Shown here one piece after another: positions 714-54,489 of a DNA stretch of 64,000 bases (positions are counted from its first letter, which is position 1; each line of letters opens with the position of its first letter). The position numbers were made by a program, and so were the translations under genes. Below the pieces are notes generated by a model. It worked only from the letters and a program-made list of their open reading frames with translations, searched no databases and had not been told where the DNA came from. Location of the stretch: NCBI GenBank assembly GCA_017429285.1, contig JAFRPF010000001.1, forward strand, positions 40,299 to 104,298, read 5' to 3'. This stretch comes from Bacilli bacterium (lineage in GTDB: Bacteria; Bacillota_I; Bacilli_A; RFN20; CAG-826).

Positions 714-1827
714 GATAGACACCTCCGAAACGAATAACAATGAAAGTAATTAAAGCTGGAATGACCACTAATAAAGCCATACCGATAATCTTCTTTCTTG
801 TATAACGAGGGGAACTCCATTCGTAATGATCCAAAACAACCGCAAGCATATTGGCGATTAGAATAGAGAAACCGACACCTTCTGGTAAGGCGGCAAATAA
901 ACGTATAAAGACAGTAACAACTGCCGCAATCATGCCATACATAATTCTTGATGGGGAATTAATTGGGCTAGTGACTGGATCGGTTAACATAAATACGGCA
1001 CCGAATAAAACGCCACCACTTAAAAGATGATAAGCAGCATATTCAAAAACGTTGATATCAACTTTTAAGGCTAATAATGATAATCCAGCAGTTAAGATTA
1101 AAGCTAAGAATGTTCCTAAATAGGAAACAACAATTCGATAATCAATACTTCTTCTAATTAATAGATAAACTAGACCAACTAAAATTGTAATGGTATAAAC
1201 TTCACCAAGAGTGCCTGGAACTTTACCTAAAAATAGATTTAATAACGAATATTGATGGATGTTAGCGAAATATCCTTCGTTTAGTAAACCTAATGGAGTC
1301 GCTCCAGCCGCGGCATCTGGAATGGTGTAATACCAAGTTGAAACATTTGTTACATATTGTGAGCCAAAGCAGACTTTAGCAAATAACATGCCAACAACCG
1401 CTGGGTTAAAGATATTGCTACCTAATCCACCGAAGACTAATTTACCAAAAACGATACCAACTAAAGCCCCTACTATCACAGCGTATATTGGAGCACCAGC
1501 GGGCATTACTAAAGTAAAGATAACTGCTGATACGCAAGCGGACAATATATTATTTTGATTAAATTTGCCTTTATAAGAATAGATGAATCTTTCTTTTAAT
1601 GAATGCTTTTGTCCATCTTTAGGCATCATATTTTTTAATCCAACATAAACAAATTCTGAAGCCACCATAATAAAGACGGATAAGACGTAGAAGATTAATG
1701 TCTTAATTGGATAAACAACAAATGAAAAGATAAGCGTTGGTGCTAACGCGATTAAAACATCGAGCATCATTCTAGTGACGGTCGCTTTTCTTCTAATATG
1801 AGGTGAATTTTCCTTAGTTATAATCAT
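706..1827 (-). CDS. rnfD: Rnf complex subunit D
   Basis: Starts SPHIR..M.DVLIAL; contains KLVFGGLGSNIFNPA, the AGAT FMN site, GTLGE and TDPVTSP; multi-TM. Confidence 0.95.
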   Translation of the reverse strand: MIITKENSPHIRRKATVTRMMLDVLIALAPTLIFSFVVYPIKTLIFYVLSVFIMVASEFVYVGLKNMMPKDGQKHSLKERFIYSYKGKFNQNNILSACVSAVIFTLVMPAGAPIYAVIVGALVGIVFGKLVFGGLGSNIFNPAVVGMLFAKVCFGSQYVTNVSTWYYTIPDAAAGATPLGLLNEGYFANIHQYSLLNLFLGKVPGTLGEVYTITILVGLVYLLIRRSIDYRIVVSYLGTFLALILTAGLSLLALKVDINVFEYAAYHLLSGGVLFGAVFMLTDPVTSPINSPSRIMYGMIAAVVTVFIRLFAALPEGVGFSILIANMLAVVLDHYEWSSPRYTRKKIIGMALLVVIPALITFIVIRFGGVYHG

Positions 1828-3125
1828 AATTTTGCAAAAAGCTTCGCCCTTCTAACATAATCAGTCACATTAATCTTTGAAGTACATGAATAGGTGCATA
1901 AACCACATTCAATACATCTTAATGGATTAAGTTTTTTAATTCTTTCTTTATCTAATGTTTTCACGGCATTCATAATTTGTACTGGTTCTAAATGTACAGG
2001 ACAAGATAAAACACAGCTACCGCATCTCACACATGGCTCTTCTTGATAATCAGTTTTATCCAAAACGATAATTGAAGTCACGGTTTTAGTAATAATACAA
2101 TCATCACTTGGAACAGCCATGCCCATCATTGGGCCACCTAAAATAAAGACCTTTTCTTTATCAGGATTTTTATATCCTCCACACAGTGGAATTAAATCTC
2201 TTATAGAAGTTCCAACACGAACTCTAAAGTTCTTTGGAAACATAATACCATCACCAGTAACAGTAATATCTCTTTTAATAACGGGCATATTATATTTAAT
2301 AGCCTTATATAGACCCACGATCGTGGAAACATTGAAGTTAATAATGCCACGATTAGATGGAAGCTCACCTGGTTTTAACTGTATACCAGTTGCAGATTTA
2401 ATCATCTCCACTTCCCAACCTTGTGGGTAGAAATTGCCAACACAGCAAAGTTCGATACCACTACCTTCATATTCTTTAATGACTTGGGTATAAACTTCTT
2501 TAATGTCTTTATATTTAGATTTGATACAAATCTTCGCGTGTTTACACTTAAAAGCCTGCATCACATATTTAATGCCTTCCATGATACGATATGGAAATTC
2601 AAGCATTAAACGATGATCGGCGGTAATATATGGTTCACATTCGATACCATTAATAAGAATCATATTAATTGGTTTATCGGTTTGAAATTTAACGTATGTT
2701 GGAAATGAAGAACCACCTAAACCCACGAGAGCACAATCCTTTAAGATTTGAGTCATGTCTTCTTTTGTTAAAGAGGCAATTTCTTCTGGCGTTCTAATAA
2801 AACAAGATTTATCTAATGTATCTTTAAAATCGTTTTTGATTTTTATAAAATCAGTTAATTTACCATTTCTATGGTAATGCTTCTCTAAACCCACAAAGGT
2901 ACCAGAACAAGTCGCATGGATTGGTTGTTCAAAAAATGGACCATGACGCATACCAATCACTTGGCAAGAATCGACATGATCGCCTTCTTTAATATATAAA
3001 TCCGCTTTAGCGCATCTAGCGTTACTGGTAGCGATATATAAATATTCTGGTTTTGTAAATCTAATAGCAGGTAATCTACTAGTTAAATTCTTTGTATCTT
3101 TAATACCTTTTGTTTTCGCAATCAT
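1824..3125 (-). CDS. rnfC: Rnf complex subunit C
   Basis: GLGGSSFPT, INGIECEPYITAD and GGPMMG motifs; two 4Fe-4S motifs (CVRCGSCVLSCP, CIECGLCTYSC). Confidence 0.95.
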   Translation of the reverse strand: MIAKTKGIKDTKNLTSRLPAIRFTKPEYLYIATSNARCAKADLYIKEGDHVDSCQVIGMRHGPFFEQPIHATCSGTFVGLEKHYHRNGKLTDFIKIKNDFKDTLDKSCFIRTPEEIASLTKEDMTQILKDCALVGLGGSSFPTYVKFQTDKPINMILINGIECEPYITADHRLMLEFPYRIMEGIKYVMQAFKCKHAKICIKSKYKDIKEVYTQVIKEYEGSGIELCCVGNFYPQGWEVEMIKSATGIQLKPGELPSNRGIINFNVSTIVGLYKAIKYNMPVIKRDITVTGDGIMFPKNFRVRVGTSIRDLIPLCGGYKNPDKEKVFILGGPMMGMAVPSDDCIITKTVTSIIVLDKTDYQEEPCVRCGSCVLSCPVHLEPVQIMNAVKTLDKERIKKLNPLRCIECGLCTYSCTSKINVTDYVRRAKLFAKL

Positions 3126-5103: not shown

Positions 5104-6027
5104 CTATTTTGTTAGTCCTTGTTTAAAGAATAAGACGATATCTTTATAAACTTCTTCTTTACGATCTTCGTTTAAGATTTCGTGTCTTAATCCTTGATAA
5201 ATTTTGCTTTGAACATTGTTTAAACCATATTTATGATACATCTCAGTTAATTTCTTAACGGAAGCACCATAACCGGTAACTGGATCATCACTACCAGAGA
5301 TAATAAAGATATTAGTGTTAGGATTTAATTTCTCCAAGTTCTTAGCTTTATGAATTTGGTTCATGCCTTTTACAAATTCATAGCAGAAACCATTTCTTGG
5401 ACCAAATCCACAAAGTGGATCAGCAATATATTTATCGACATTTTCTTTATTAACAGATAGCCAATCAAATGCTGTTCTTGGATTAACAATTTTCTTATTG
5501 AAATTACCAAACATTAGTTTGTTTAATAAGCCCGCTTTTTCATCTCTATTTTTCTTATTAACAATTATCTTCGCTAATAAATAACCGGCGGGGACAGCGG
5601 GGTTTTTCGCACCACTACCACATAAGACAACTCTATCGCAGTGATCAGCATATCTTTCAATGTAGTCTTGGCACATGAATGAACCCATAGAATGGGAGAA
5701 GATAAAGACAGATTTTTTCGTACTCTTTTGTAATTCGGTAACTAATGTATCAACCGCTTTTACTTGTCTAGCAAAACCATTTGTTGGCCAGATACCTACT
5801 TTGCTCATATTATCCTTAACATTTTCGCCTTGTCCAAAAGCGTCAATCGCATAAACATTAAATCCTTCTTTATTTAAATATTTAGCGAATGCATCATAAC
5901 GGGAAGTATGTTCTTCCATACCTTCCATAATAACGACATTAGCCTCAAATGTTTTCTCTAACCAGCAAAGACCAAATAATTCATCGCCATTTCTAGAAAT
6001 TACTTTCAGTTTTTTTGCTTCACTCAT
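5104..6027 (-). CDS. Alpha/beta hydrolase, lysophospholipase/monoacylglycerol lipase type
   Basis: SHSMG nucleophile elbow, GSDDPV acid and RHEILNE His. Start at 6027 has an AGGAGA RBS. Confidence 0.85.
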   Translation of the reverse strand: MSEAKKLKVISRNGDELFGLCWLEKTFEANVVIMEGMEEHTSRYDAFAKYLNKEGFNVYAIDAFGQGENVKDNMSKVGIWPTNGFARQVKAVDTLVTELQKSTKKSVFIFSHSMGSFMCQDYIERYADHCDRVVLCGSGAKNPAVPAGYLLAKIIVNKKNRDEKAGLLNKLMFGNFNKKIVNPRTAFDWLSVNKENVDKYIADPLCGFGPRNGFCYEFVKGMNQIHKAKNLEKLNPNTNIFIISGSDDPVTGYGASVKKLTEMYHKYGLNNVQSKIYQGLRHEILNEDRKEEVYKDIVLFFKQGLTK

Positions 6028-6041
6028 AATCTTTTCTCCTA

Positions 6042-7058
6042 TCATTTATCATATCCATTTGGATTATTCTTTTGCCAATTCCATGAATCGCGGCATGCAT
6101 CTTCAATTGTTAAAGATGTTTTAAAGTTCATTTCTCGATATGCTTTCTCCGCATTAGCGTAATTTTCATCAACATCACCAGGTCTTCTTGGACAGATGAC
6201 ATAAGGAATTTTAATCTTATTAACTTTTTCAAAAGCGTGAACAAGCTCTAATACGCTTGTCCCTCTACCAGTACCTAAATTATAAATAACTAATCCTGGT
6301 TTTTCTTCTAGCTTTCTTAAAGCGCATAAGTGACCATAAGCTAAATCCACAACATGGATATAGTCTCTAACCCCTGTTCCATCAACGGTTTTATAGTCAT
6401 TACCATAAACATTTAAGTGATCCCTTTTACCCACAGCAACTTGAGTGATATATGGCATCAAGTTATTTGGGATGCCGTTTGGATCTTCACCAATAAGTCC
6501 ACTTGGATGAGCGCCGATAGGATTGAAATATCTTAAGATGGCGATATTCGCATCAGGATTTTCTTTCGCATAATCCTTTAAGATATATTCGATATCTAAT
6601 TTCGTTTGTCCATATGGGTTTGTACATCCACCCACCTTATCATCTTCTTTAAGTGGTACATGGTCTGGAACGCCATACACAGTAGCAGATGAAGAGAAGA
6701 CAATGTTATGAACTTTATATTCCTTCATGAGCTTTAATAAGACCTTGGAACTACCGACGTTATTAGAAACATATAGTTCTGGTTTTTGGACACTTTCCGC
6801 CACACTTTTTAATCCCGCAAAATGAATAACATCAGTAATCTTTTCCTTTTCAAAAACTTCCCTTAATTTAGGTTCATCTTGCACGGAAAGTTCGTAAAAT
6901 CTTGGCCTTTTGCCAGTAATTTTATAAATCCTTTCTAAAACTTCAGGTTTGCTGTTGCAGTAATTATCAACGATTACCACGTCATAGCCACGGTCTAATA
7001 AATTGACCACAGTGTGTGAACCAATGTAGCCGGTTCCGCCTGTCACTAAAATCGCCAT
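6042..7058 (-). CDS. galE: UDP-glucose 4-epimerase
   Basis: GGTGYIGSHT, YGQTK (YxxxK), LRYFNPIGAH and GVRDYIHV. Start at 7058. Confidence 0.96.
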   Translation of the reverse strand: MAILVTGGTGYIGSHTVVNLLDRGYDVVIVDNYCNSKPEVLERIYKITGKRPRFYELSVQDEPKLREVFEKEKITDVIHFAGLKSVAESVQKPELYVSNNVGSSKVLLKLMKEYKVHNIVFSSSATVYGVPDHVPLKEDDKVGGCTNPYGQTKLDIEYILKDYAKENPDANIAILRYFNPIGAHPSGLIGEDPNGIPNNLMPYITQVAVGKRDHLNVYGNDYKTVDGTGVRDYIHVVDLAYGHLCALRKLEEKPGLVIYNLGTGRGTSVLELVHAFEKVNKIKIPYVICPRRPGDVDENYANAEKAYREMNFKTSLTIEDACRDSWNWQKNNPNGYDK

Positions 7059-32662: not shown

Positions 32663-33569
32663 TCCTAATTTAAAAGAGAACAAATTCAAAAGAGCATTAG
32701 TCTCTCCTTTTAGAAATATTGTTAAAGCTATTTCAAAGACCGCTTATGTCAAATATCAATATAAATATATCACTCATCATAAGTGTGATTTAACTAACCC
32801 AACTAGATATACAGAGAAGCTCCAATATTTGAGATTATTTGTCTATCCAAAAGATCCTTTAGTCGTTCAATGTGCGGGTCGTGCAGGAGTAAGAGAATAT
32901 CTCAAAAAACGCGGATTTATTGATAAATTAATCCCGATTTACGGAGTTTTTGATAAATTTAGTGATATTGATTTTGATAAATTACCAGATCAATTTGTGA
33001 TGAAGTGTACCCATGCTTGTGCCTTTAATTACATCTGCTATGACAAATCTAAAATTGATAAAAAAGCTCTAGAAAAGAAATTTAATAAATGGTTAAAAAC
33101 TAACTACGGTAAAAAGACCGTGGAGATGCATTACGCTCCTATCAAACCACAAATAATAATCGAAAAATTAATGCTCGAAGATGGAAAACTACCAACCGAA
33201 TATAAGATCCACGTCTTTAACGGCAAAGCTAGAAGTATGTATGTTGTTACTTCTCGTGGAGTGGATATTAGATATAACAACTATTACATCGATTGGACAC
33301 CATTTGATGGTTCCCAATTTAATGGTTGGAAAAAGACTGATTATCCGTTAAATAAACCCGATCACTGGAATGATATGATAGAGATGTCTGAAATCTTAGC
33401 GGAACCATTCCCATTTGTCCGTGTCGATTTATATAACATTAATGGAAAAATATATTTTTCAGAGATGACTTTTACCCCCGCCAAAGGAACACTCATCTTA
33501 GACGATGATAAGTGTGATTTTGAAATGGGTGAATGGTTAGATATCAATAAATATATTAATGCCAAGTAG
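32655..33569 (+). CDS. TupA-like ATP-grasp protein
   Basis: NPTRYTEKLQY, LPDQFVMKCTH, PQIIIEK, EYKIHVFNG and FVRVDLY...IYFSEMTFTP. Confidence 0.85.
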   Translation: MSNPNLKENKFKRALVSPFRNIVKAISKTAYVKYQYKYITHHKCDLTNPTRYTEKLQYLRLFVYPKDPLVVQCAGRAGVREYLKKRGFIDKLIPIYGVFDKFSDIDFDKLPDQFVMKCTHACAFNYICYDKSKIDKKALEKKFNKWLKTNYGKKTVEMHYAPIKPQIIIEKLMLEDGKLPTEYKIHVFNGKARSMYVVTSRGVDIRYNNYYIDWTPFDGSQFNGWKKTDYPLNKPDHWNDMIEMSEILAEPFPFVRVDLYNINGKIYFSEMTFTPAKGTLILDDDKCDFEMGEWLDINKYINAK

Positions 33570-34506
33570 TGTGTGGGAAGCTTACTTCATACACCATTAA
33601 GGCATGATAAACTTCTTCATCAACATATATAGGTTTGGCCTTGGTATTTTCAGGGTCATCCTTTTCCTCTTGGCTATATTTGCCGTTATAAATATTATCT
33701 ACGCTATATTGCATTGAGAAACCGCATAATCTATTCGTATCAAATTTCTCTAACGAGAAACCGAAACAAATATACATTTCCCATCTTCCAGCGTAAGGTT
33801 CTAAGAAGTGATCATCACCAGAGTTTGTGGGAACATTACTTATTTTATAAGTAATTGGTTGATATGTATACCCGGTATCATTTTTTAAATATAAACCAAT
33901 ATGAAGAGAAATATCAGAATAGCATGTTGGTAAATTTTGATCGTCTTTTTTAACTACTGATCCTTTAAAATTTGTCATGAAATAAGAGGCATCATTACTT
34001 TCTTTGGGAAGTAAAACACCCATACCTTTTTTCTGATCTTTATTATTTGGTTCGAGTTGAGTTCTAGCTTGTTGGAAATCACCATTGCAGAACATTTGTC
34101 CATCAAATAGTTTAGAAGTCACACCATATTTAAATGAGTCACTATATTTGGATAATTTCACATCCGGACCATAGGCTTTTAAATCCTTATTCTCAGGAAC
34201 ACTATCTTTATCATATGTATAAGCATAACTAGCCCACAAAGGTTCGACTTTATGGAAGTTATTATCATTTAATGATAAGAAAACGTTATTAGTTTCTTCA
34301 TCTAAAGCGACTTCGTCTTTTTTTGCGGTGATCTTATTCTTTTCTAAATTTGGATTAATCCCATCATTCCAAACGTTATAATAATTCTCTAAAAAATTCG
34401 TGGAATTATAAGGAATGCCATTATAAGTTTCTTTTAATCCATATCCACAAGCGGTAATAAGAATTGATGGAGCAATTAATAATAATTTAAATCTTGATAA
34501 TTTCAT
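33556..34506 (-). CDS. Hypothetical lipoprotein
   Basis: Signal peptide with lipobox ITAC; overlaps the stop of the upstream gene. Confidence 0.75.
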   Translation of the reverse strand: MKLSRFKLLLIAPSILITACGYGLKETYNGIPYNSTNFLENYYNVWNDGINPNLEKNKITAKKDEVALDEETNNVFLSLNDNNFHKVEPLWASYAYTYDKDSVPENKDLKAYGPDVKLSKYSDSFKYGVTSKLFDGQMFCNGDFQQARTQLEPNNKDQKKGMGVLLPKESNDASYFMTNFKGSVVKKDDQNLPTCYSDISLHIGLYLKNDTGYTYQPITYKISNVPTNSGDDHFLEPYAGRWEMYICFGFSLEKFDTNRLCGFSMQYSVDNIYNGKYSQEEKDDPENTKAKPIYVDEEVYHALMVYEVSFPHTTWH

Positions 34507-35929
34507 CGTCTTTTTCCTCCTTATTTTCTTGTGGTTTTTCTTCTTTAATCACTGGTTTAACTTTGTTAAATGCATATCCTAATAAGAACAAAACAATAAT
34601 TAAAGGTGAACTAGTAAAGAATGGAGATAAATTATTAGCGTTTATAAGTGGGTAATTATCAAAAAGAATTAAGGAGACGAATAAGAATCCTAATACGTAT
34701 CCCGCAATTTGATATCTATCCGCTTCTTCATCTTCCCCATGATCTATATAATTAAATAATTTCTTAATAGCGATAATAATGCCACCAAGGAAGAATAACG
34801 CACCAAATAATCCACTACTTTGTAAGTTATCAAAAATCCAGAAACCAGACAAAACTTGTTTCACGCCATTTTCATATTGATAAGCATATAAACCTACTGG
34901 AATACCAAATATTTTCTCTTTAGAGAATAAATCTTGAAGAATAGCGTTGATACTAATAGCGAAGCGGTTGGAATTAAATAATCGATCCATTAAAGCATTC
35001 TTACTAATCGCATTTCTTAAACCAGTTGTAAATCCCCAATTCTTTTGAGCGTTTAAAAACAAAATGATTATGGCAATAACAACAATCGCTCCAATAGCGA
35101 TCATCATCCAATTAAATACACCACGATATTGTTTTAATTTACCCGCTAAGATAATAATCGCAATTCCAACAATTAAAACTAAATCGCTTAATAAAGTTAA
35201 TTTAGAAATAGTAAATAATAAGGAAATAAAAGCTAATATAGATAATACTAAATAGATAAGGAAAACATTTCTATTTTCTTTATATTTAATAAAGAATGAA
35301 GGAATAACAGCGGTTAATAATAAGGATGGGAATAATGACCAATAGCCAATTGAAACTTCACTAATCTGGAAGCCATAAAGCATATAAGCCATCGAACCAA
35401 TCGGCACTAATGAGGCTTTGCCATCATAAACAAAATAAGAATTCTTATATATTAAGGTATAAAATGGCACGTAATAGACCATCGTCGCGATTAAGTTAAT
35501 TAAAACAAATATTCCTAACGCGGAATAAATAACAAGCAAAGCGGTTCTTATTTTAAATTTAGAAATATAAGTAGATAAAAATCCAGATAATCCAATGCAT
35601 GTTAAGCATATTGGAACAAATATTGATTCCGCCACACCAATCGCACCAACAGAGTTATAGTTAAATCTACTTAAAGCGGTTAATAAACCAAAAACAAATA
35701 TTGGAAATATAAAAAACGCAAAAGAAGATATTTGATCAACTTTAATTTGTCTAAAAGTCACTAAAAGTAATAGTAACATTAAAACCAAGGATAAAATTCC
35801 ATAAAGCAAGAAGGAATGGCCTAAATAAAAAGAGACGAAGGCTAACACTTCTAAACATAAAAAGCCAACGACTATTCCATAATTTGAAAAATCAAATCTT
35901 ACTTTTTTATTTACTGTTTCTTCAGACAT
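34487..35929 (-). CDS. Multi-TM protein, O-antigen ligase/Wzy polymerase-like
   Basis: About 12 TM with a large loop before the last TMs (R...IFG.PVG...FDNLQSSGLFG); next to wzx and glycosyltransferase genes. Confidence 0.55.
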   Translation of the reverse strand: MSEETVNKKVRFDFSNYGIVVGFLCLEVLAFVSFYLGHSFLLYGILSLVLMLLLLLVTFRQIKVDQISSFAFFIFPIFVFGLLTALSRFNYNSVGAIGVAESIFVPICLTCIGLSGFLSTYISKFKIRTALLVIYSALGIFVLINLIATMVYYVPFYTLIYKNSYFVYDGKASLVPIGSMAYMLYGFQISEVSIGYWSLFPSLLLTAVIPSFFIKYKENRNVFLIYLVLSILAFISLLFTISKLTLLSDLVLIVGIAIIILAGKLKQYRGVFNWMMIAIGAIVVIAIIILFLNAQKNWGFTTGLRNAISKNALMDRLFNSNRFAISINAILQDLFSKEKIFGIPVGLYAYQYENGVKQVLSGFWIFDNLQSSGLFGALFFLGGIIIAIKKLFNYIDHGEDEEADRYQIAGYVLGFLFVSLILFDNYPLINANNLSPFFTSSPLIIVLFLLGYAFNKVKPVIKEEKPQENKEEKDDEIIKI

Positions 35930-36365: not shown

Positions 36366-36971
36366 ATGGACGAAATGAAGAGTAAAGAACAAATTATCGC
36401 TGATAATCTCGCCTATTATCGTAAAGCGGCTGGATTAACACAGCTTGAAATCGCTGATAAATTTAACTATTCCGATAAATCAATCTCTAAATGGGAAAGA
36501 GCGGAAGGTTTACCAGATGTTTTAGTGCTCAAATCTTTAGCGGATTTTTACGGCATTCAAGTCGATGACTTTTTTAATGAAGAAAAGAAGAAAACTCCTT
36601 TGACAAAAAAGAGTAAACACTACTTCATCGTCGGTTTAAGTGAATTATTACTCTGGTTAGTGTTCGCTGTCGCCTTTGTTTTGTTTGCTATTTCACCAAT
36701 TAAAGATGTTTTTCCTTGGTGGTTAATATTTATTTACGCTTCTGCCGCTTCATCAATTCTCGCGGTTGTTTGGTCTGGTGTTTACCATAATAAATTATTA
36801 CAACTTATCGCCACCTCTGGAATTATTTGGTTAAGTATTACATCTTTATTCTTAACACTATTATTAACTACCACGATGCCGATGCTTTGGCTATTATATC
36901 TTATTGGTATTCCCCTTCAAGGTTTAGCGGTGTTATGGTATTTCTTAAAAAGAAATTCACATAAAAAATAA
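36366..36971 (+). CDS. XRE/Cro-family HTH regulator with C-terminal TM helices
   Basis: NLAYYRKAAGLTQLEIADKFNYSDKSISKWERAEGLPD followed by about 4 TM helices. Confidence 0.9.
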   Translation: MDEMKSKEQIIADNLAYYRKAAGLTQLEIADKFNYSDKSISKWERAEGLPDVLVLKSLADFYGIQVDDFFNEEKKKTPLTKKSKHYFIVGLSELLLWLVFAVAFVLFAISPIKDVFPWWLIFIYASAASSILAVVWSGVYHNKLLQLIATSGIIWLSITSLFLTLLLTTTMPMLWLLYLIGIPLQGLAVLWYFLKRNSHKK

Positions 36972-36998
36972 AATCGGTTCATCGAAACCGATTTTTAT
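36968..36998. terminator. Bidirectional terminator
   Basis: AAAATCGGTT-CATCGA-AACCGATTTT. Confidence 0.8.
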
Positions 36999-37840
36999 TT
37001 AAGTCCATCATTGATATATAGAATACCAAGTGTCTTAGGACCACAGTGGGAAGTGATCGTCGCTTGCGCTACTGTTTCATAAATTGTTTTGAAGCCGCGT
37101 TTCTTTAAATGTTCTTTAGCGATCTGTACCATCTCTGGCGTGGCATGAGAATGAGTCACGAAGGCGATTGATAAATCAGGATTATTAAATTCCTCTAATG
37201 TGTCGCGACAATAATTATCGACACACTTTTCATTTTTACCACTATATTTCTTTTGTGGTGACATCTTTCCATTAGCCACAATAATTTGTGGTTTGATTCT
37301 GAATAAAGCAGCGGAGAACCTGGCTAAACCAGAGCATCTTCCACCTTTATGTAAATAATTCAAAGAATTAATCACAAAGCTAGCTTGAACATAAGGAACA
37401 CGAGCTTTAACTTTCTCAACAATCTCTTCTGGTTTTAATCCTTCATTAGCTAATTTACGCGCATAGATTGCTAACAAAGCAATACCTGTTGATAATGATT
37501 CAGAATCGATGACATAAACATTTTTCATAATAGAAGCGGCCGCCATCGCATTTTGGCAAGCAGAAGAAATACCACTACTTAATGAAATATGAATAACTGC
37601 GTCATGATTTCTTAATAATTTTGTAAAGTATTGATCAAATTGGAATTCGTTGACCGCAGCAGTCTTTGGTAAGATTCCTGTCTTATCAACATATTCAAAA
37701 ATCTCAGTGGGAGTGATATCTCCATCTAATCCACTTTTATCACCTAAAATAACAGTGAATGGAATAACACTGATGTCATATTCTTTTTGTAATTCTTTTG
37801 GTAAATCGAGGGTCGATTCAGTAGAAATGGCTATTTTCAT
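36995..37840 (-). CDS. DegV/FakB fatty-acid-binding protein
   Basis: STESTLDL, LSSGISS, LHKGGRC and HCGP. Confidence 0.92.
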   Translation of the reverse strand: MKIAISTESTLDLPKELQKEYDISVIPFTVILGDKSGLDGDITPTEIFEYVDKTGILPKTAAVNEFQFDQYFTKLLRNHDAVIHISLSSGISSACQNAMAAASIMKNVYVIDSESLSTGIALLAIYARKLANEGLKPEEIVEKVKARVPYVQASFVINSLNYLHKGGRCSGLARFSAALFRIKPQIIVANGKMSPQKKYSGKNEKCVDNYCRDTLEEFNNPDLSIAFVTHSHATPEMVQIAKEHLKKRGFKTIYETVAQATITSHCGPKTLGILYINDGLK

Positions 37841-37873
37841 TTCGTTAATCTCCTAATTAAATATTATAGTCAA

Positions 37874-38854
37874 TTAATTGACTCTCAAAAAGTCCTTAAT
37901 AGTCTGATCGTATTTTTCTAAGGCATTATTTCTAATATGCGAATGGCTTCCTTCAGTAAACCAAACAAACTTTTTATTCTTGCTCGGGCAAGCATCAAAT
38001 ACTTTAACGGCGTTCTCAGGAAGCGAATACTTATCATTTTTTGTATGGATAAATAAAACTGGAATATCAATCGTTTTAATATTATTGAGCGGTGAAGCTT
38101 TCTTAACCGATTGACCGGTGTACATCTTAAACCAGAACCATATTAAATAGAAAACTGGAAACTTCTTATGTCCTAAATCAACATAATGTCTTTCATAAGA
38201 TTCTAGGAAGTTAATAAAGACGCCATCGAAGACGATTTTTTCAATGAGCTGTTTCCCGTTTTTAAAATTATAAGCAATAGTACCAGCGCTTCCACCGACA
38301 CAGACGCAGTGTAAAACAAATTTTTCTTGTTTAAAATTATCGTGAATATAATTCATCCAAGCAACGATATCTTCGCCTTCTTTAATACCAACTGTGGAAT
38401 AATGGCCTTCACTAAAGCCATGACTTCTAGGATCAACAAATAATAAATTATATCCAGATTCTAAATAAGGCTTTGCGTAATAATAGGCGTAGATCAAACA
38501 CTCACATCTACCACATAAAAATGTCGCTGTTTTCTTATGACCGAAATCATAAAATTCACCCATTAATTTGAGCCCATCATTAATAATAGAAACTTCTTTT
38601 TTATATTTGGAGTATTGAGACATAAATTCAATACCTTCATCCCACATCTTCACCTGTTCAGGGTTATTAGGAGCAGAGCACACTCTTCCCCAACCTTCAC
38701 CCATCTTATTGCTAAGGGTGTGTAAATAAACTCTTCTAGCAATGGCAAAGACAAGCCAAATAGAAAATAAAAGAGAGGATAATAGGAAAATGGAAACGCC
38801 GATAATAACCCAGTGATACCATGTTAAATTAACTAAAATTAATGGCAAAAACAT
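37874..38854 (-). CDS. Membrane-anchored alpha/beta hydrolase (YqkD-like) with Cys at the nucleophile position
   Basis: N-terminal TM, DPRSHGFSEG, elbow LHCVCVGG, HTKND acid and GSH His. Confidence 0.8.
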   Translation of the reverse strand: MFLPLILVNLTWYHWVIIGVSIFLLSSLLFSIWLVFAIARRVYLHTLSNKMGEGWGRVCSAPNNPEQVKMWDEGIEFMSQYSKYKKEVSIINDGLKLMGEFYDFGHKKTATFLCGRCECLIYAYYYAKPYLESGYNLLFVDPRSHGFSEGHYSTVGIKEGEDIVAWMNYIHDNFKQEKFVLHCVCVGGSAGTIAYNFKNGKQLIEKIVFDGVFINFLESYERHYVDLGHKKFPVFYLIWFWFKMYTGQSVKKASPLNNIKTIDIPVLFIHTKNDKYSLPENAVKVFDACPSKNKKFVWFTEGSHSHIRNNALEKYDQTIKDFLRVN

Positions 38855-38874
38855 TGCAAAACCCTAATTTTTGT

Positions 38875-39813
38875 TTATTTTTTTGCTAAAACACTGGCTA
38901 AGAATTTTCTTTCTTCTTCACAGTCTTTACTGACTGGTCTATCCGCTAGGAAAAATAAGACTGCTAAACCTGGTCCGACATTCACACCGTTAGATTGACC
39001 TAAACGACACTTTAAGACGGTAGCCTTAGGAGCTACTTTATGAGCAATCTTCACAAATTCATCACATTGTTCTTCTCTAATAGAATGAGCACAGATAATT
39101 GTGGTTTTTTCTTCTTTTGTTAAATATTCTTTTAGGAATTCTTCCGCTACTTTATAGGAAGCTTTATATCCTCTAGCGTTACCTAAAACGCATGGCATAC
39201 CGGTTTCATTAGAGAAATCCGCCATTGGTTTAACACCAGCCATCGTTCCAAAGAAAGCTTTGGCTTTAGAGATACGTCCACTTCGATGAAGGAAAAATAA
39301 ATTATCTAAGACACCAACTTGATGTAAGCATAATTTTCTTTCTTCTAAGAAATTAAAGTTATCTTCTATACTCATGCCTTTACTTCTATTTTCGGAAGCT
39401 AAAACTGCTAGGATAGATATGCCCGCACTATATCTTTTGGAGTCAACGACATATAAATGTCTATTTGGATATTTTGCTTCAAGTTCATTTTTGGCTTGAA
39501 TAAATGCGTTATATGTTCCAGACATACCACTTGATAATGTGACCGATAAAACATCTTGTCCGTTTTTGAAATATTCTTCCACTCTTTGGGAGATTCTGAA
39601 TTGATTTGGTAAACCAGATTTGAAGTTCTCTTTTTTATCTAATCTTTTATAGAACTCTTCAAAGGAAATCGTTTCCCAATCGTAATCCGCATCATGATCG
39701 CTTCCGTCAGGATATAAGACGGTTCCTGGAACTGGATTTTCAATTCCATATTCTTTTCTTTGTTCCTTGCTTAAGTCCATGCAAGAATCTGTTAAAATGA
39801 CATATTTTTCCAT
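38875..39813 (-). CDS. DegV/FakB family protein, second paralogue
   Basis: TDSCMDL, LSSGMSGTY and LHRSGRI; C-terminal NVGPG in place of HxGPG. Confidence 0.88.
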   Translation of the reverse strand: MEKYVILTDSCMDLSKEQRKEYGIENPVPGTVLYPDGSDHDADYDWETISFEEFYKRLDKKENFKSGLPNQFRISQRVEEYFKNGQDVLSVTLSSGMSGTYNAFIQAKNELEAKYPNRHLYVVDSKRYSAGISILAVLASENRSKGMSIEDNFNFLEERKLCLHQVGVLDNLFFLHRSGRISKAKAFFGTMAGVKPMADFSNETGMPCVLGNARGYKASYKVAEEFLKEYLTKEEKTTIICAHSIREEQCDEFVKIAHKVAPKATVLKCRLGQSNGVNVGPGLAVLFFLADRPVSKDCEEERKFLASVLAKK

Positions 39814-40068
39814 TTACTTTAAATTCCTTTCAATGTAATCAATTACATCTTTTACATTAGTAAAATCATCAAAAGAGGAGTCTTGAAACTCAATATTAAA
39901 AGTTTGTTCAATAGAGATTGCTAAATAAAGAACACCGATTGAAGTTAAACCTAAATCGCTTCTTAAATCGCTTTCTTCACTAACATCTTCTAACAAACTT
40001 CCATTCGATGAATTAGCGAGTTTGATGAGCTCTTTTAACTTGTTAAATATTTCTAATCTAGTCATCAA
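39814..40068 (-). CDS. Acyl carrier protein
   Basis: 84 aa and acidic; L..DLGLTSI...L...IEQ.F.I phosphopantetheine motif (TS instead of DS). Confidence 0.85.
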   Translation of the reverse strand: MMTRLEIFNKLKELIKLANSSNGSLLEDVSEESDLRSDLGLTSIGVLYLAISIEQTFNIEFQDSSFDDFTNVKDVIDYIERNLK

Positions 40069-41578
40069 TATTCACCTTTCCCCTAATAATCTTCATCGCT
40101 GGAGTTCTTTTAAAATCTTCTTTTCTGATAACTATTTTACTGATACGTGAGAAAGAAGGTAACAAATTATTTATTTTTTTAATTTGTTCCTTTAAAAATT
40201 CTTCCTTATCGTTAACATCTAATTTCATCATTTCACCCATTCTTGGATAAACTGATAAAACTAATCTATTAGTGTTTTCCTCTAAATACACCATTGTGTC
40301 TTGAATGATATCTAATTCATCAAACTTATTTTCTAAATCAAATGGCGAAATCTTTTCTCCCGTAGGAAGAACGATAATTTCTTTAATTCTACCGACAATA
40401 TATAAAAATCCTTCTTCATCAAATCTTACTAGATCGCCAGTTTTAAAGAAGCCATCTTCTGAGAAAGCATTTTTATTTTCTTCTTCCTCACCATAATAAC
40501 AATCCATGACATTATCGCCTTTAATCCATAGTTCTCCATCGACGACTTTTAATTCTTGATGTGGATAAGGGAACCCAACGGAAGCGGGTTTATATTCACT
40601 ACGCGGATTACCAGAAACAAGGTTTGCGGATTCTGTTAAACCATAACCTGGTAAAAGAGTGATGTTATATTTCTTATATTCTTTAACAAGAAATGGAGCA
40701 ACCGTCGAAGCTCCGGCGATGATATAAGATAAAGAATCGCCTAACATATTTTTATTAAATTGTTTGGATAAGTTTAAACACATTTCTGCTAAAGCAGGAA
40801 CCATGACCATGACAGTCGGTCTAAAAACCGCGATATCTCTAAACATATCTTTATTATTTTGAGTAATAAATAAAGCACTACCGGTTTGTAAGGAAGTTAA
40901 TAAATTTCTCACTAATCCAAAAACGTGAGTTAACGGTAAAACTAATAAATATTTTTGTTTAAAGACATGTTTAATACCAAAGCAGCCGTTACAAGCGCCA
41001 CGACATAAAGCTTTATTATTTAGTAGTGCTCCTTTACTTTTTCCTGTGGTGCCACCTGTAAAAATAATTGAGGCAGGATCTTTAGGATTAACACTAACAC
41101 TAGGCTCCACTTTTTCGCTTGTGCTAGTGGCATCAATTAATGTCATTCTATGTGGAAAGTTAACTAAACCATCTACCTTTTCTTTTAATGAAGGATAATA
41201 CACCAAAGCCTTCATTTTGAATTTTATGGAGCAGCCAAATAAAGCTTCAGTGGGCAAAAAAGGAGGAAGTAAAACAGCCACTCCGCCTAATGTTTCAATC
41301 GCTAAGTAAGCCTTGACCCATTCCAAGCTATTAGGAGCAAAAACCCCTACAAAATCCCCTTTATTTATGCCTTTTTCCTTTAAAATCGCTCTAAAATGAG
41401 CAACTTCTAAATCTAATTGTTCATAGGTCCATGAACGAGAAATATCACTTAATGCGACATCTTTTTTAAACTCTTTAACGGAGTTTTCCCATAACTCACT
41501 TAAAGAATCAAAACACTTAATTCTTTCAAATTCTTCTTTAACTGTATAACTCACAAAATGATTTTCATTTACTAACAT
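40058..41578 (-). CDS. Long-chain fatty acid--CoA/ACP ligase (ANL superfamily)
   Basis: FTGGTTGKSKG, GYGLTE and FKTGDL...GRIKEIIV. Confidence 0.9.
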   Translation of the reverse strand: MLVNENHFVSYTVKEEFERIKCFDSLSELWENSVKEFKKDVALSDISRSWTYEQLDLEVAHFRAILKEKGINKGDFVGVFAPNSLEWVKAYLAIETLGGVAVLLPPFLPTEALFGCSIKFKMKALVYYPSLKEKVDGLVNFPHRMTLIDATSTSEKVEPSVSVNPKDPASIIFTGGTTGKSKGALLNNKALCRGACNGCFGIKHVFKQKYLLVLPLTHVFGLVRNLLTSLQTGSALFITQNNKDMFRDIAVFRPTVMVMVPALAEMCLNLSKQFNKNMLGDSLSYIIAGASTVAPFLVKEYKKYNITLLPGYGLTESANLVSGNPRSEYKPASVGFPYPHQELKVVDGELWIKGDNVMDCYYGEEEENKNAFSEDGFFKTGDLVRFDEEGFLYIVGRIKEIIVLPTGEKISPFDLENKFDELDIIQDTMVYLEENTNRLVLSVYPRMGEMMKLDVNDKEEFLKEQIKKINNLLPSFSRISKIVIRKEDFKRTPAMKIIRGKVNIDD

Positions 41579-42240
41579 TATTTATTACCTCTTTTATATA
41601 ACTCTTTTAACTCTTGTTCTTTATCAAATAGATATTTGGTGACTTCTTCGATTTGATTCATTCCAAGATTATCACCAAATTTCTCTTTTATATTTATCGG
41701 TTCACCAATGACAATTCTTTGCCTTTGAAAAATATTTTTTCTAATCTCGCGATATGTCGGAACGATTGGAACATTAGCTTGATAAGCCATCATGATTGCC
41801 CCACTTTTAAATGGTGACATCGGTTTATCATTTGAGAATGAAATATGACCTTCAGGGAAAATAACAATCATATTACCACCTTGTAATCGTAGTACAATTT
41901 CCTTAAAAGTGGATAAGCTTGGTTTTTCTCTATCTACTGGAATGCAACCAGAATTTCTATAAAACCATCTGGAAAATGGCTTAATAAATAATTCCTTCAT
42001 GACTACGAAGAACAATCTTCGATATGCGAATGCGCAGTGCAGAACCATGACGTCAGAATATAAAATGTGATTACTAATAATTAGGCAACCACCTTTTTGT
42101 TTCTTTTTTGCAAGTTCATTTTCGTATATCTTTTTGACTCTAAACCATAATAAAAATGGAATACCAAAAAATCTAAAGAGATCAAATAAAAAGTATTTGA
42201 AGTTTATAAAATGAGCTTGATACGGGTTCTTCTTTTTCAC
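41578..42240 (-). CDS. plsC: PlsC-type acyltransferase
   Basis: NHILYSD (HX4D), IPVDR and IFPEG; GTG start. Confidence 0.85.
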   Translation of the reverse strand: MKKKNPYQAHFINFKYFLFDLFRFFGIPFLLWFRVKKIYENELAKKKQKGGCLIISNHILYSDVMVLHCAFAYRRLFFVVMKELFIKPFSRWFYRNSGCIPVDREKPSLSTFKEIVLRLQGGNMIVIFPEGHISFSNDKPMSPFKSGAIMMAYQANVPIVPTYREIRKNIFQRQRIVIGEPINIKEKFGDNLGMNQIEEVTKYLFDKEQELKELYKRGNK

Positions 42241-42313
42241 ATGTATAATTATACTAAAAGTATAAAGTTTATAAAGTAAATAGTGTCAATATATGAACAA
42301 ATGTTCCTTTTTG

Positions 42314-43333
42314 TTAGAAAGAAGGAAACATTTTTCTAAATAGCCAAGCAAATAAAACGTTAAATGAAGCGCAGAAAATGACCACTAATGGAATGGTTAC
42401 ATTATAGTTACAGTGTAAAGTGGTTAAAAAGATTTCTAATAGACCATGACAGGTTCCCATTCTAATCGCCGTAAATAGTAGTTCTTTCCAAAGTCTTCTA
42501 AAGAAAGATTGGCTTGGATAAATATTATTTATTAATAGGAAATATATAAATAAACAAACAGTATAAGAGAAATAGGTAGTTTCTATAATAGAAAAGGAGC
42601 TATATTTCATTAAGGTAATCATCATGAACATTAATAAGGCATTACATAATAACGCGGGTATAGCGTGTAAAAAGATAATTGTTTGAATTCTAAATGTATC
42701 TTTAAAAGGTGAGAAATGACTTCTGGAATTACCATCTAAATAGATGGTTTCAATAGGAATGGTATATAAAGAAGCCTGCATGAGTTGAATTCTCACTACT
42801 TGGTTCATCTCATATTCATATCTATTACCTTTAATTTTTATTAAATCTGGTAAATATCTAATCGGGAATCCTCTTAATCCACATTGATCATCTTGAATAT
42901 ATTGTTTGGTTAGTAAAGACCTTGTGGTTTTGGAAAAATAATTTCCAAATTTACTTCTAAAAGGAACATCCTTTCCAAAGCTTCTCACCCCAAACACTAA
43001 TTGGTCAGTTTCCACTAATTTATCGTAAATACGATTGATATCTTTTAAAGAATGCTGTCCATCCCCATCAACGGTAATGACATATTTCGCCTCAGGATAA
43101 AAATTTAATAATTCTTTATATCCATATTTCATCGCCGCACCTTTACCTTTATTCTTTTCAAAGGAAAGGTATTTAACCTTATCTTTAATTTGATCAAAAA
43201 TTGGTTCAAATTCTTTTCCTGAACCATCATTAACCACTAAGATGTTAAAATCATCGTTAATTAATTCATCCACTACTTTTATAAGTAGTTCATCTGGTTC
43301 ATAACTAGGGATTAATATAATCGCATCTTTCAT
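42314..43333 (-). CDS. GT2 polyprenol-phosphate glycosyltransferase with a GtrA-like TM tail
   Basis: IPSYEP, VVNDGS, GKGAA, DGDGQH, DDQCGLRG and RYEYEMN; four C-terminal TMs. Confidence 0.85.
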   Translation of the reverse strand: MKDAIILIPSYEPDELLIKVVDELINDDFNILVVNDGSGKEFEPIFDQIKDKVKYLSFEKNKGKGAAMKYGYKELLNFYPEAKYVITVDGDGQHSLKDINRIYDKLVETDQLVFGVRSFGKDVPFRSKFGNYFSKTTRSLLTKQYIQDDQCGLRGFPIRYLPDLIKIKGNRYEYEMNQVVRIQLMQASLYTIPIETIYLDGNSRSHFSPFKDTFRIQTIIFLHAIPALLCNALLMFMMITLMKYSSFSIIETTYFSYTVCLFIYFLLINNIYPSQSFFRRLWKELLFTAIRMGTCHGLLEIFLTTLHCNYNVTIPLVVIFCASFNVLFAWLFRKMFPSF

Positions 43334-43402: not shown

Positions 43403-43796
43403 TGGTGGAGTCGAGGGTGTCGAAACCCTGTCCAGGGATGGCTCTTCAATAACATCTACAGTTTAGACGATATTGTGGTTTAACGTATATTCGTATATCG
43501 ACTCACTAGAATACGCGAGACTTTCTATATTTCGGTTAAAAGTAACAAGTCCACTCCTATAACCTATCCTTTTGGTATGACACCCCTACCAAGCGTGAAA
43601 GGCTAAAACCTTGGGGGATGCTCTGCCCGATTTAAAGAAACCGGAATCCTATGTCGGGAGCAATTATGCTAAGCAGAGAGATTGAGCTCTAGGAGCTCTC
43701 ATATAACTGTTGTCAGTTATTTTTGTTTTGATGATAACGTCATCGCTCGACTGCAGTTAGAGCCTAGCACATCTCTGTCGAATCCAATACGACCCC
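43403..43796 (-). ncRNA. ssrA: tmRNA
   Basis: 5' GGGGTCGTATTGGATTCGAC and 3' GGTTTCGACACCCTCGACTCCACCA. Resume context AATAACTG; tag (A)DNSYMRAPRAQSLCLA at 43714-43664. Confidence 0.96.
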
Positions 43797-43922: not shown

Positions 43923-44984
43923 ATGAAACCAGAAAATAAAAGAAATATCAGAAATCTATTTGCCGGCTTAATCTCTAATGAAGCTGCAATCGATGGCGCG
44001 AAAAATTCCCCTTGGTGGATCGCAGTCATCTTATTTATCGTAGGAACATTCCTACCAATTATCCCTATTATGACCACTCAAAGTAAAACATATGGTGCAT
44101 CCTTTGTCAGTGGTTATAAATATGACTATGACCAAGCATTAGTCTCATGTGGTGTGGCTTTAAAGGCACAAAAATATGAATTTAAAGTGGAAGAAAAAAA
44201 TCTTATTGGAAAAGTCGATGGAGTCACTTTAGAAAACACTTGGTTTGACGATAAAGATTTAACTCCTATCTATTCATATGACGCTACTGTTAATGGTGTT
44301 ACCCACCGTGTATTAAATGTTTATTATTCTGATAGACCATATACTAGTAAAGCTAAAAACGGTATTACTGATATGATCAAAGCCTTGGATTTAAATTATT
44401 TAGGTTTTGATTCCACCGATAAATATAATGCTGAGGTTCATTCTGGTTATTATATTCCTTCTTATTTAATTCTTTATAAGACTGGTATGTATTCCAAAAT
44501 CTTCAAATTTAGAAGTAAGGCCGCCGCAAGTGCAACATATACTGGCTTAAATTGGAATCATACTCAATTTAATGAATTGTTGACATATACCACCACCACT
44601 AATGTGGAAGAAAATCTTAAAGATATTAACTATGTTAATGCTTCATTTGAAAACTGGAAGAATGTCTTTAATAGATCATATTTAGATCAAAAACTATCTA
44701 ACTTCTGGACAACCTCTGGAATGTACTGGGGCATCTGTGTTGGTTTAGGTATCTTCATGGGCTTCATGATGTGGTTATTAACACGTGGTAAACGTAATCC
44801 AAATAGAGGTCTAAACATTTGGGTCACCATTAAGATCTCCTGGTGGATTGATACCGCTCCTGGAATCCTCGGCATGGTCCTTGGCTTTATCTGGCCAGCT
44901 GCTGCGGGAATCGGATATATCGCTCTCATGGGCTTAAGAACAATGTGGTTATCCATGAGACAATTAAATCCAGTTGTGGAATAA
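43923..44984 (+). CDS. Hypothetical membrane protein (1 TM, large external domain, 3 TM)
   Basis: Hydrophobicity pattern; topology resembles DUF1189/MalA but no confident match. Confidence 0.75.
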   Translation: MKPENKRNIRNLFAGLISNEAAIDGAKNSPWWIAVILFIVGTFLPIIPIMTTQSKTYGASFVSGYKYDYDQALVSCGVALKAQKYEFKVEEKNLIGKVDGVTLENTWFDDKDLTPIYSYDATVNGVTHRVLNVYYSDRPYTSKAKNGITDMIKALDLNYLGFDSTDKYNAEVHSGYYIPSYLILYKTGMYSKIFKFRSKAAASATYTGLNWNHTQFNELLTYTTTTNVEENLKDINYVNASFENWKNVFNRSYLDQKLSNFWTTSGMYWGICVGLGIFMGFMMWLLTRGKRNPNRGLNIWVTIKISWWIDTAPGILGMVLGFIWPAAAGIGYIALMGLRTMWLSMRQLNPVVE

Positions 44985-53754: not shown

Positions 53755-54489
53755 TTATAATATTTTCTCTAAAAATATCGGCAGTTGATATTTCCAACTT
53801 GGCCAATCGTGGATACTATTATGATCCCAGAAATGAAATTCAATATTAATTCCTTTTTCGTCAGCGATATTTCTTAATTCATAATTTGATTCGATAACCA
53901 AATATTCATACGCTCCTTCACCCACTACTGAAATCATCTTTCTTTGATTATATAAATCTATATAGTAATGATCCTTAGGCATATTAGCTAAATAATGAGT
54001 GGGTGAATTGTTATAAATGTTTTCATCCATATAATGGAAATAATTGCCGATACTATATTCCGCACTTAAAGCGATAAAACCAGCGAATAAATCAGGTCTT
54101 CTAAAGAAGTTATTGGAAGCATGTGTCCCACCCATCGACATACCGATAAGATAAGGCATACAAAATCCACCTTGTTTATCATAGATAAGTGGCATCGCTT
54201 CATTAACTAGATATTGGTGATACATCTCAAATTTATAACCGCACTGGGCTTTATCCCAACTTGATGAATTAATTGTCTCATCATCATTAGAATCTAAACA
54301 GAATAGTTTCATTCTTCCACCTTCGATAAAAGGAGATAAAACATCAATCATCCCGTTATTATAAAAATCATCGCTTTGTTTTCCTAAGCACGGAAAAGCA
54401 ATCACGGGAACCCCATAATGCCCATATATCTTGATATTCATATGACGATTTAATCTTTCACTAAACCAGGAAACTTCTTCATATTTCAT
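53755..54489 (-). CDS. Putative esterase (alpha/beta hydrolase)
   Basis: YGHYG.P, GMSMGG and HDWPSW. Confidence 0.85.
   Translation of the reverse strand: MKYEEVSWFSERLNRHMNIKIYGHYGVPVIAFPCLGKQSDDFYNNGMIDVLSPFIEGGRMKLFCLDSNDDETINSSSWDKAQCGYKFEMYHQYLVNEAMPLIYDKQGGFCMPYLIGMSMGGTHASNNFFRRPDLFAGFIALSAEYSIGNYFHYMDENIYNNSPTHYLANMPKDHYYIDLYNQRKMISVVGEGAYEYLVIESNYELRNIADEKGINIEFHFWDHNSIHDWPSWKYQLPIFLEKIL

Follow-up and report, generated by a model that had tools for sequence, protein, structure and literature searches.

The locus described here raises the question of how an uncultured gut bacterium might bring fatty acids from its surroundings into membrane lipid, and whether the genes it carries would suffice for that. 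It lies in a stretch of 64,000 nucleotides (the window) from the genome of a 'Bacilli bacterium' (assembly GCA_017429285.1, contig JAFRPF010000001.1, positions 40,299 to 104,298), in which six co-oriented minus-strand open reading frames (ORFs) fill positions 36995–42240. Read 5' to 3', they code for a PlsC-family acyltransferase, an adenylating enzyme of the ANL superfamily (here called the ligase), a small carrier protein, a FakB-family protein (DegV1), a membrane-anchored alpha/beta-fold enzyme ('HydB type') and a second FakB-family protein (DegV2). An initial annotation had recorded the six co-oriented genes, with which the ORF coordinates and Pfam families agree, and had read them as a single operon for a self-contained scavenging or remodelling route, a description that the comparisons below lead us to revise.

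We favor, with moderate confidence, a trimmed two-module island, in which an Aas-like salvage and re-acylation module stands beside the remnant of a Fak unit and exogenous fatty acids would pass into membrane lipid. Judging from related loci, the island appears to be widespread in uncultured gut and rumen Firmicutes. In this scheme the ligase would adenylate a free fatty acid and join it, in thioester linkage, to the phosphopantetheine of the carrier protein dedicated to it; from there the acyl group would pass to a lipid acceptor, most likely a lysophospholipid or lysophosphatidic acid, by the action of the PlsC-family acyltransferase on the cytoplasmic side of the membrane. The DegV proteins, of FakB type, would extract fatty acids from the membrane, with FakA and a phosphopantetheinyl transferase (PPTase) acting in trans here, whereas the DegV proteins of relatives would work beside a FakA encoded in the cluster; the membrane-anchored enzyme, with its Cys-His-Asp triad, would probably form an acyl-thioester intermediate and act as a transacylase, thioesterase or lysolipase.

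The acyltransferase, ligase and carrier protein

The first three genes were compared with 80 related loci, all from metagenome-assembled genomes (MAGs) of uncultured gut or rumen Clostridia and Bacilli, and the comparison supports a functional unit that is conserved in both of these classes. Ligase orthologues with 52–77% identity are present in at least 80 species-level genomes, mostly of Clostridia (Christensenellaceae, Oscillospiraceae, Ruminococcus, Lachnospiraceae, Ca. Scatosoma and others) and some of Bacilli. A PlsC-family acyltransferase gene is directly upstream of the ligase gene at 73 of 76 loci, a carrier protein gene directly downstream at all 79 of 79, and a PPTase gene (ACPS or an LRAT-ACPS fusion) within 1.5 kb at 64 of 73. 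Conservation of the neighborhood had been proposed as a check on the initial annotation, and the acyltransferase–ligase–carrier linkage does hold across the 80 loci with their differing flanks.

Four orthologues are single acyltransferase–ligase polypeptides of 693–726 aa with the domain order of E. coli Aas, the acyltransferase preceding the ligase in the fused P0078, P0098 and P0102. Most clusters (type A) encode three more proteins, namely a 640-aa adenylation–carrier didomain protein, another acyltransferase and a transporter of the MFS_2 type; the didomain protein of the fusion-bearing clusters is 29.5% identical to the ligase, which suggests that related adenylation domains in these clusters load carriers. 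Because the unit is conserved, is fused in some genomes and usually has a PPTase gene as neighbor, loading of the dedicated carrier protein followed by acyl transfer is strongly indicated. A link to fatty-acid uptake comes from related clusters that encode FakA, DegV, the MFS_2 transporter and hydrolases on the same strand. Thus, in the initial proposal that exogenous fatty acids are loaded on a dedicated acyl carrier protein (ACP), the core and the connection with scavenging stand, by linkage and by fusion, and the self-contained character does not.

Two features of the related clusters are of note in themselves. In most of them the PPTase is fused to an N-terminal LRAT domain (an NlpC/P60-like phospholipase/acyltransferase; L015 8240–9244, L064 11745–12785), a combination of which we know no description. 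The transporters are of the MFS_2/GPH type rather than LplT, and come in 658-aa and 450-aa forms (L015 3238–5214, L064 14699–16090). MFSD2A, a eukaryotic symporter of lysolipids, is of this broad family too, and by that analogy a lysolipid substrate is conceivable.

The three proteins have the expected catalytic motifs and modest scores with curated models. In the acyltransferase, N57-H58-x4-D63, R74 and P129-E130 are kept in 98–100% of 128 homologues; it matches TIGR00530 with 86 bits against a PlsC cut-off of 102.95, and the Aas-type PRK08633 with 75 bits, its only PDB relative is Thermotoga maritima PlsC (5kym, E 1.2e-8), and there are weak NCBIfam matches to lyso-ornithine-lipid acyltransferases. 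The ligase, in which the P-loop T174–K182 and K496 are invariant (alignment A1), has its best NCBIfam matches among long-chain fatty-acid CoA ligase models, all below cut-off, and we infer that it is an acyl-carrier-protein synthetase. The carrier protein exceeds the Pfam cut-off for PP-binding (20.8 bits), and its S43, within D-L-G-x-x-S, is kept in 81 of 81 orthologues; it falls below the AcpP equivalogs (best 53.3 against 70; TIGR00517 40 against 70.45; NF002148-51 included).

Other assignments of these proteins were considered. Dlt-like D-alanylation was rejected: the ligase has 103 NCBIfam matches, with no DltA in the best 25, and none in its top 60 PDB matches, and there is no DltC model among the 13 NCBIfam matches of the carrier protein. 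MenE and oxalate/malonyl-CoA ligase were set aside, all scores being below cut-off and the context unfitting. FAALs are marked by a specific insertion within the N-terminal domain and by a CoA pocket that is blocked (PMC8460268); the ligase is only 506 aa long and has CoA ligases as its best NCBIfam and PDB matches, with no FAAL-named entry among the 60 best in PDB.

The PPTase gene is variable within the lineage of the window. In four close relatives the carrier protein and DegV1 genes are separated by an ACPS-type gene (L021 4390–4965, L023 11754–12329, L025 11754–12356 and L029 8251–8826), and it is missing from L022, L024, L026 and the window, where the two genes abut exactly at the 39813/39814 junction. 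As the initial annotation stated for the window, no fab, fakA, plsX or plsY family is among the Pfam hits of the called genes, nor in those of a further ~10 kb on each side, several genes in this region being without any hit.

These observations also bear on a housekeeping role, in which the organism would be without fatty-acid synthesis, its only PlsC and only ACP would be those encoded here, and an AasS-like ligase would supply all acyl-ACP for bulk phospholipid from rumen fatty acids. Some Erysipelotrichia indeed have no type II fatty-acid synthesis (FASII); the absence of fab, plsX and plsY families, and of a second plsC family, from the Pfam hits across ~84 kb points the same way, and a PPTase gene that is dispensable within the lineage fits loading by a general AcpS. 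Yet across diverse families of Clostridia the modules come with an Sfp/EntD-like PPTase of their own, as accessory systems typically do; the acyltransferase and carrier protein score below the PlsC and AcpP cut-offs, and five of the six genes are weakly represented in RNA-labelled libraries (see below). We consider a housekeeping role rather unlikely, and return to the two-module island.

The DegV proteins and FakA

Both DegV proteins are bona fide family members, with full-length DegV (EDD) domains and scores above the TIGR00762 cut-off of 99.7, and neither reaches the FakB1 equivalog cut-off. FakB/DegV structures are the top PDB relatives of DegV1, and B. subtilis DegV (3fys) is the best for DegV2. 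The cluster DegV proteins of distant taxa match DegV1 best, at 30–38% identity, and DegV1 is orthologous to the DegV encoded ahead of FakA in related clusters; DegV2, of the more generic type, appears to be an extra, gained FakB.

In a second group of clusters (type B), the carrier protein or PPTase gene is followed by HydA (a serine hydrolase), DegV, sometimes MFS_2, a 545-aa protein and HydB. The 545-aa protein is FakA (TIGR03599, 478 bits), with Dak2, FakA-like_M and FakA-like_C domains, and is encoded inside the cluster at 15 of 39 related loci. Outside the lineage of the window the cluster DegV is accompanied by FakA at all loci except one truncated contig, and where flanks are complete the two adjoin or only MFS_2 intervenes. 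A control set of 80 fakA loci, taken from a profile scan of genome contigs and including no MAG of the window's lineage, gives the same picture: the FakA proteins nearest to the cluster type are always within HydA–DegV–(MFS_2)–FakA–HydB, with or without the ligase module, whereas the housekeeping fakA loci of Bacillus, Streptococcus, Enterococcus and others are without HydB. This second module thus appears to be a unit of its own, and DegV1 and the membrane-anchored enzyme are the orthologues of its DegV and HydB. The window would then carry a trimmed island, lacking FakA, HydA, MFS_2, the PPTase, the second adenylation–carrier protein and the second acyltransferase. Since relatives encode FakA, the PPTase, MFS_2 and the second adenylation–carrier and acyltransferase proteins in the cluster and the window encodes none of these, the claim of a self-contained route falls.

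The initial annotation had the DegV proteins pass fatty acids straight to the ligase, independently of FakA. FakA is indeed absent from the window, and the carrier protein stop abuts the DegV1 start, but in every other lineage with complete flanks FakA is next to DegV or separated from it by MFS_2 only, the type A ligase clusters, which are the majority, have no DegV at all, and DegV2 is apparently transcribed on its own. The association of DegV with FakA outside the lineage argues for ordinary FakB–FakA coupling rather than a DegV that feeds the ligase, and direct feeding seems to us very unlikely. The DegV proteins would still handle fatty acids as FakB-type proteins; what changes is the probable partner, FakA in place of the ligase.

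It could also be that the ligase module and the DegV and hydrolase genes are neighbors by descent only, with synteny and no functional link. The whole neighborhood is syntenic within the lineage, unrelated flanking genes included, and DegV2 has a promoter-like site of its own. DegV1-type and HydB-type orthologues are nonetheless found on the same strand, 1–7 kb from the ligase, even where the flanks differ, in distant Clostridia and Bacilli, and we give mere co-inheritance hardly any credence beside a two-module island.

The cysteine-nucleophile alpha/beta-fold enzyme

The fifth gene codes for an enzyme with an unusual active site. Its nucleophile elbow is H-(G/C)-x-C-x-G, with Cys185 in place of serine in 38 of 39 family members (alignment n=39), Asp274 and His304 are invariant in all 39, and a conserved G-R-C-E-C motif stands where serine hydrolases have HG. 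All HydB-type orthologues have the cysteine nucleophile, while the neighboring HydA-type proteins keep HG and G-x-S-x-G. The AlphaFold model (pLDDT 93.4) has one long N-terminal helix (residues 12–47) and an alpha/beta fold; the best Foldseek match is esterase Pf2001 (E 1.7e-16), monoacylglycerol lipases and other lipases are also near, and a few family members match Pfam DLH.

Dienelactone hydrolase, PhaC and Cys-type thioesterases share the G-x-C-x-G elbow, the Cys-His-Asp triad and the alpha/beta hydrolase fold. The protein differs from them in that its closest solved fold is a serine esterase, and in its N-terminal membrane anchor and G-R-C-E-C motif. Transacylases, thioesterases, polyhydroxyalkanoate synthases and dienelactone hydrolases form acyl-thioester intermediates, and by analogy the cysteine nucleophile suggests one here. 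An ordinary serine alpha/beta hydrolase fits the fold and not the elbow, which is (C/G)-x-C-x-G instead of G-x-S-x-G. An extracellular lipase is disfavored by the nucleophile cysteine and by the charges R40, R41 and K50 that follow the N-terminal helix, which by the positive-inside rule place the modeled catalytic domain probably in the cytoplasm. The 'two acyl-transfer enzymes' of the initial annotation need a qualification: one is the PlsC-family acyltransferase, and the second is an alpha/beta-fold protein with a cysteine nucleophile.

This subfamily with the cysteine elbow accompanies one particular FakA clade in many gut Firmicutes. As a bolder idea, which we think improbable, the protein could be a new transacylase that takes an acyl group as a thioester from FakB-bound acyl-phosphate or from the acyl-carrier protein and, with the Aas-like module, lets uncultured gut Firmicutes build exogenous fatty acids into membrane lipid without PlsX or PlsY; the DegV proteins of the window's lineage, from which the in-cluster FakA has been lost, might then feed the ligase directly.

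Comparison with known systems

The closest architectural parallel to the first module is E. coli Aas, with an LPLAT acyltransferase followed by an ANL domain in the same order, as adjacent genes here and fused in some orthologues, and with an HX4D motif that is invariant here. By BLASTP the ligase is 29–32% identical to the synthetase domain and the acyltransferase 26–30% identical to the transferase domain. Relatives' clusters include a transporter of the major facilitator superfamily (MFS), as LplT accompanies Aas in E. coli, but theirs is of MFS_2 (GPH type) and LplT of MFS_1, and the window has no MFS gene. Also unlike Aas, which uses the housekeeping ACP, the cluster has a carrier protein of its own and usually its own PPTase. 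True orthology to Aas is not supported despite the shared architecture, because the scores with curated models (NF005959, NF006386 and NF005291; 75, 37 and 35 bits for the acyltransferase and 102–107 for the ligase) are far below the cut-offs of 886–1349. We read the first module as working like Aas by analogy, without being a member of the Aas family. The LplT–Aas system has been described as identified in Gram-negatives only (PMC11416262), and the hosts here are Firmicutes.

By description, the ligase resembles AasS of Vibrio and AasC of Chlamydia, since it too is an acyl-CoA-ligase-like ANL enzyme that would acylate an ACP with exogenous fatty acid; in those systems the housekeeping FASII ACP is used. 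In Chlamydia a separate lysophospholipid acyltransferase gene adjoins that of the acyl-ACP synthetase AasC. FakA and FakB of the Gram-positive pathway are paralleled by the two DegV proteins and by the in-cluster FakA of relatives; the differences are that the window has no FakA and that alpha/beta-fold enzymes, one of them Cys-type, always flank FakA of the cluster-type clade, whereas they do not flank housekeeping fakA. Reviews assign acyl-ACP and acyl-CoA synthetases to Gram-negatives and FakAB to Gram-positives (PMC10146087). FAAL-like domains fused to lysophospholipid acyltransferases are on record, and such atypical architectures are discussed as largely uncharacterized (PMC8460268). Our literature search found no published description of this cluster, in agreement with the initial view that it is not a described system.

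A further parallel, again by description, is the OaaA/OaaACP/OaaC system of gut Clostridia, whose free-standing adenylation enzyme charges a dedicated carrier protein with exogenous fatty acid (PMC13310621); both systems combine an adenylation enzyme, a dedicated carrier and a transferase, acting there, and probably here, on diet- or host-derived fatty acids. OaaC is a condensation domain of the nonribosomal peptide synthetase type that makes amides with small amines, unlike the PlsC-family O-acyltransferase here with its linkage to Fak genes. The fatty-acid-amide precedent (PMC13310621) is one reason to consider that the product is a specialized lipid, as in such systems or those of the OlsA type, the acceptor being for example a glycolipid, a lipoteichoic-acid anchor, an amino acid or amine, or a lipoprotein N-terminus. 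Other reasons are the private PPTase, two adenylation/carrier pairs and two acyltransferases of relatives, the GT2 glycosyltransferase gene kept directly upstream in the lineage, the glycoside-type MFS_2 transporters in place of LplT, and the weak lyso-ornithine-lipid acyltransferase matches. PlsC-family enzymes with HX4D normally use lyso-glycerolipids, however, the domain matches of the window include no condensation domain or N-acyltransferase, and the tight linkage to FakA/FakB belongs with bulk fatty-acid incorporation. A specialized product is in our judgment unlikely, and incorporation into membrane lipid by a trimmed two-module island is preferred.

Organization and transcription of the locus

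The features of the locus are collected in Table 1. The overlaps or tiny gaps described initially for the first four genes are as stated: the overlap is 1 nt between the acyltransferase and ligase genes and 8–11 nt between those of the ligase and carrier protein, and the carrier protein and DegV1 genes abut with a gap of 0; gaps of 20 nt and 33 nt follow on either side of the hydrolase gene. The terminator placed after the last gene is likewise evident as a clean hairpin and T-run, read from 36995 to 36970.

Table 1. Genes and signals of the six-gene locus and its immediate flanks (window coordinates)
Feature	Position	Strand	Properties
PlsC/LPLAT-family acyltransferase	41578..42240	(-)	220 aa; PF01553 94 bits; HX4D and (F)PEG motifs; hydrophobic N-terminus
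ANL-superfamily adenylating enzyme (ligase)	40058..41578	(-)	506 aa, acyl-CoA-ligase-like; PF00501 212 bits; AMP-binding and AMP-binding_C_3
Small carrier protein	39814..40068	(-)	83-84 aa; PP-binding PF00550 37.9 bits; attachment serine S43
DegV1, FakB-family fatty-acid-binding protein	38875..39813	(-)	Pfam DegV (PF02645); TIGR00762 175 bits
Membrane-anchored alpha/beta-fold enzyme, 'HydB type'	37874..38854	(-)	326 aa; Pfam alpha/beta hydrolase; Cys185-Asp274-His304 triad
DegV2, second FakB-family protein, more generic type	36995..37840	(-)	Pfam DegV; TIGR00762 212.8 bits
GT2 glycosyltransferase, hydrophobic C-terminal third	42314..43333	(-)	PF00535 57 bits
Intrinsic terminator, common to DegV2 and convergent HTH gene	36970..36995	(-)	11-bp stem then T-run
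XRE-type helix-turn-helix (HTH) protein, hydrophobic C-terminal half	36366..36971	(+), convergent with DegV2	PF01381 44.8 bits
Promoter-like TTTATA-16-TATAAT	42248..42275	(-)	7 nt 5' of acyltransferase GTG start
Internal promoter-like element and AGGAG ribosome-binding site	37860..37888	(-)	Precedes DegV2

Promoter-like matches in the region number 33, against 36.4 +/- 6.6 in shuffled sequences, so there is no excess, and our promoter calls rest on position and transcript contigs rather than on the counts of the scan. Because such sites are not above shuffles, the one ahead of the acyltransferase gene is weak evidence for a promoter; its TATAAT is 7 nt upstream of a GTG start that has no Shine-Dalgarno sequence. 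The GT2 gene is co-oriented and lies 73 nt upstream of the acyltransferase gene with no terminator between, and in one relative (L026) the distance is only 3 nt, so transcription of the unit may begin with GT2. With the TATAAT and AGGAG that DegV2 has of its own, these findings leave the single upstream promoter that had been annotated unconfirmed.

Four bovine-gut libraries labelled metatranscriptomic were used as RNA data, the label being the guess of a tool. Contigs of a ~95%-identical strain cover all six genes, and DegV2 assembles as a separate contig with a word depth of 14–34, compared with 0–5 for the other five genes; the separate, deeper contig is present in runs X2–X4. In run X1 one contig covers the convergent HTH and DegV2 genes, which makes DNA carry-over possible in these libraries. 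DegV2 appears to be transcribed separately and more strongly than the other genes, and the annotation of all six as one operon is accordingly doubtful for DegV2.

A transfer-messenger RNA (tmRNA) gene (43403–43796, minus strand; Rfam RF00023, 109 bits) lies just upstream of GT2, encodes the tag peptide DNSYMRAPRAQSLCLA, and is followed by a terminator-like hairpin (43391–43369). Its contigs are by far the deepest in the RNA-labelled libraries (~230–350), and it was the sole match of the RNA-family search, which found no riboswitch or leader RNA.

Neighboring genes and source of the window

The window is 97% identical to the rumen 'Bacilli bacterium' MAG JBGUIX01, and also matches a 542-kb metagenome scaffold (ERZ28654026 scaffold_4). 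The rest of it, with ~10 kb on each side, holds housekeeping and cell-envelope genes, including those for Rnf, GatCAB, tRNA synthetases, DnaB, FtsH, LicD/TarIJ-like proteins, glycosyltransferases and a flippase.

Next to the cluster, the GT2 gene adjoins the acyltransferase gene in all relatives of the lineage. The best NCBIfam matches of the protein are PpgS, AglJ and PgfS, all far below cut-off, and in sequence it resembles polyprenyl-phosphate sugar synthases. At the other end, the HTH gene is beside DegV2 in L020, L021, L023, L024 and L029, and in L055 (Ca. Fimimonas) the gene of a 34%-identical homologue immediately precedes the cluster; the protein may be a membrane-tethered regulator. 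Also beside the cluster throughout the lineage is a pair of overlapping genes (33556–35929, minus strand) for a 480-aa polytopic membrane protein and a 316-aa predicted lipoprotein, whose leader ends in Cys, with no Pfam or NCBIfam match for either. A 353-aa membrane protein with no significant family match (43923–44984, plus strand) is kept upstream of the tmRNA and GT2 genes in the lineage with 49–56% identity.

Farther away, an operon for an Rnf complex occupies the start of the window (171–3125 and upstream, L101), with RnfC/D/G/E/A/B-like genes and ApbE. A teichoic-acid or polysaccharide gene set (~10360–33569) includes LicD, IspD/TarI-like and alcohol dehydrogenase/TarJ-like genes, GT4 glycosyltransferases, a Wzx-like flippase and an ATP-grasp TupA. 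There are two more alpha/beta-fold esterase-like genes (5104–6045 and 53755–54489, both minus strand), the product of the first having a canonical serine elbow, H-S-M-G.

Discussion

Several points weigh against a two-module island for membrane lipid. The ligase scores 200 bits with acyl-CoA ligase models and ~105 with those of Aas, and since it reaches no equivalog cut-off and the former models outscore the latter, neither its substrate nor its preference between CoA and carrier can be read from the sequence. No protein of the cluster reaches a curated equivalog cut-off. Queries with PPTase, FakA and the MFS_2 transporter by tblastn gave no match in the window, and the upstream GT2 and the glycoside-type MFS_2 of relatives make a glycolipid or some other acceptor conceivable. 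The RNA support consists of assembled, unstranded contigs from the ~95%-identical strain, in libraries that may contain DNA.

At least 80 loci besides this one, in uncultured rumen and gut Firmicutes, have an Aas-like module with its own carrier protein and usually its own PPTase, and many combine it with a Fak unit; the Cys-type alpha/beta-fold enzyme that accompanies the module had previously gone unremarked. An Aas-like route, so far described only in Gram-negatives, is most likely present here in an uncultured rumen bacterium. The components are small and soluble or single-pass, and can therefore be tested directly in vitro. If the proposed chemistry holds, these bacteria would have a second route, beside FakAB, for incorporating dietary or host lipid, which would bear on lipid metabolism in the rumen, on membrane building in gut bacteria with reduced genomes, and on the bypass of inhibitors of fatty-acid synthesis.

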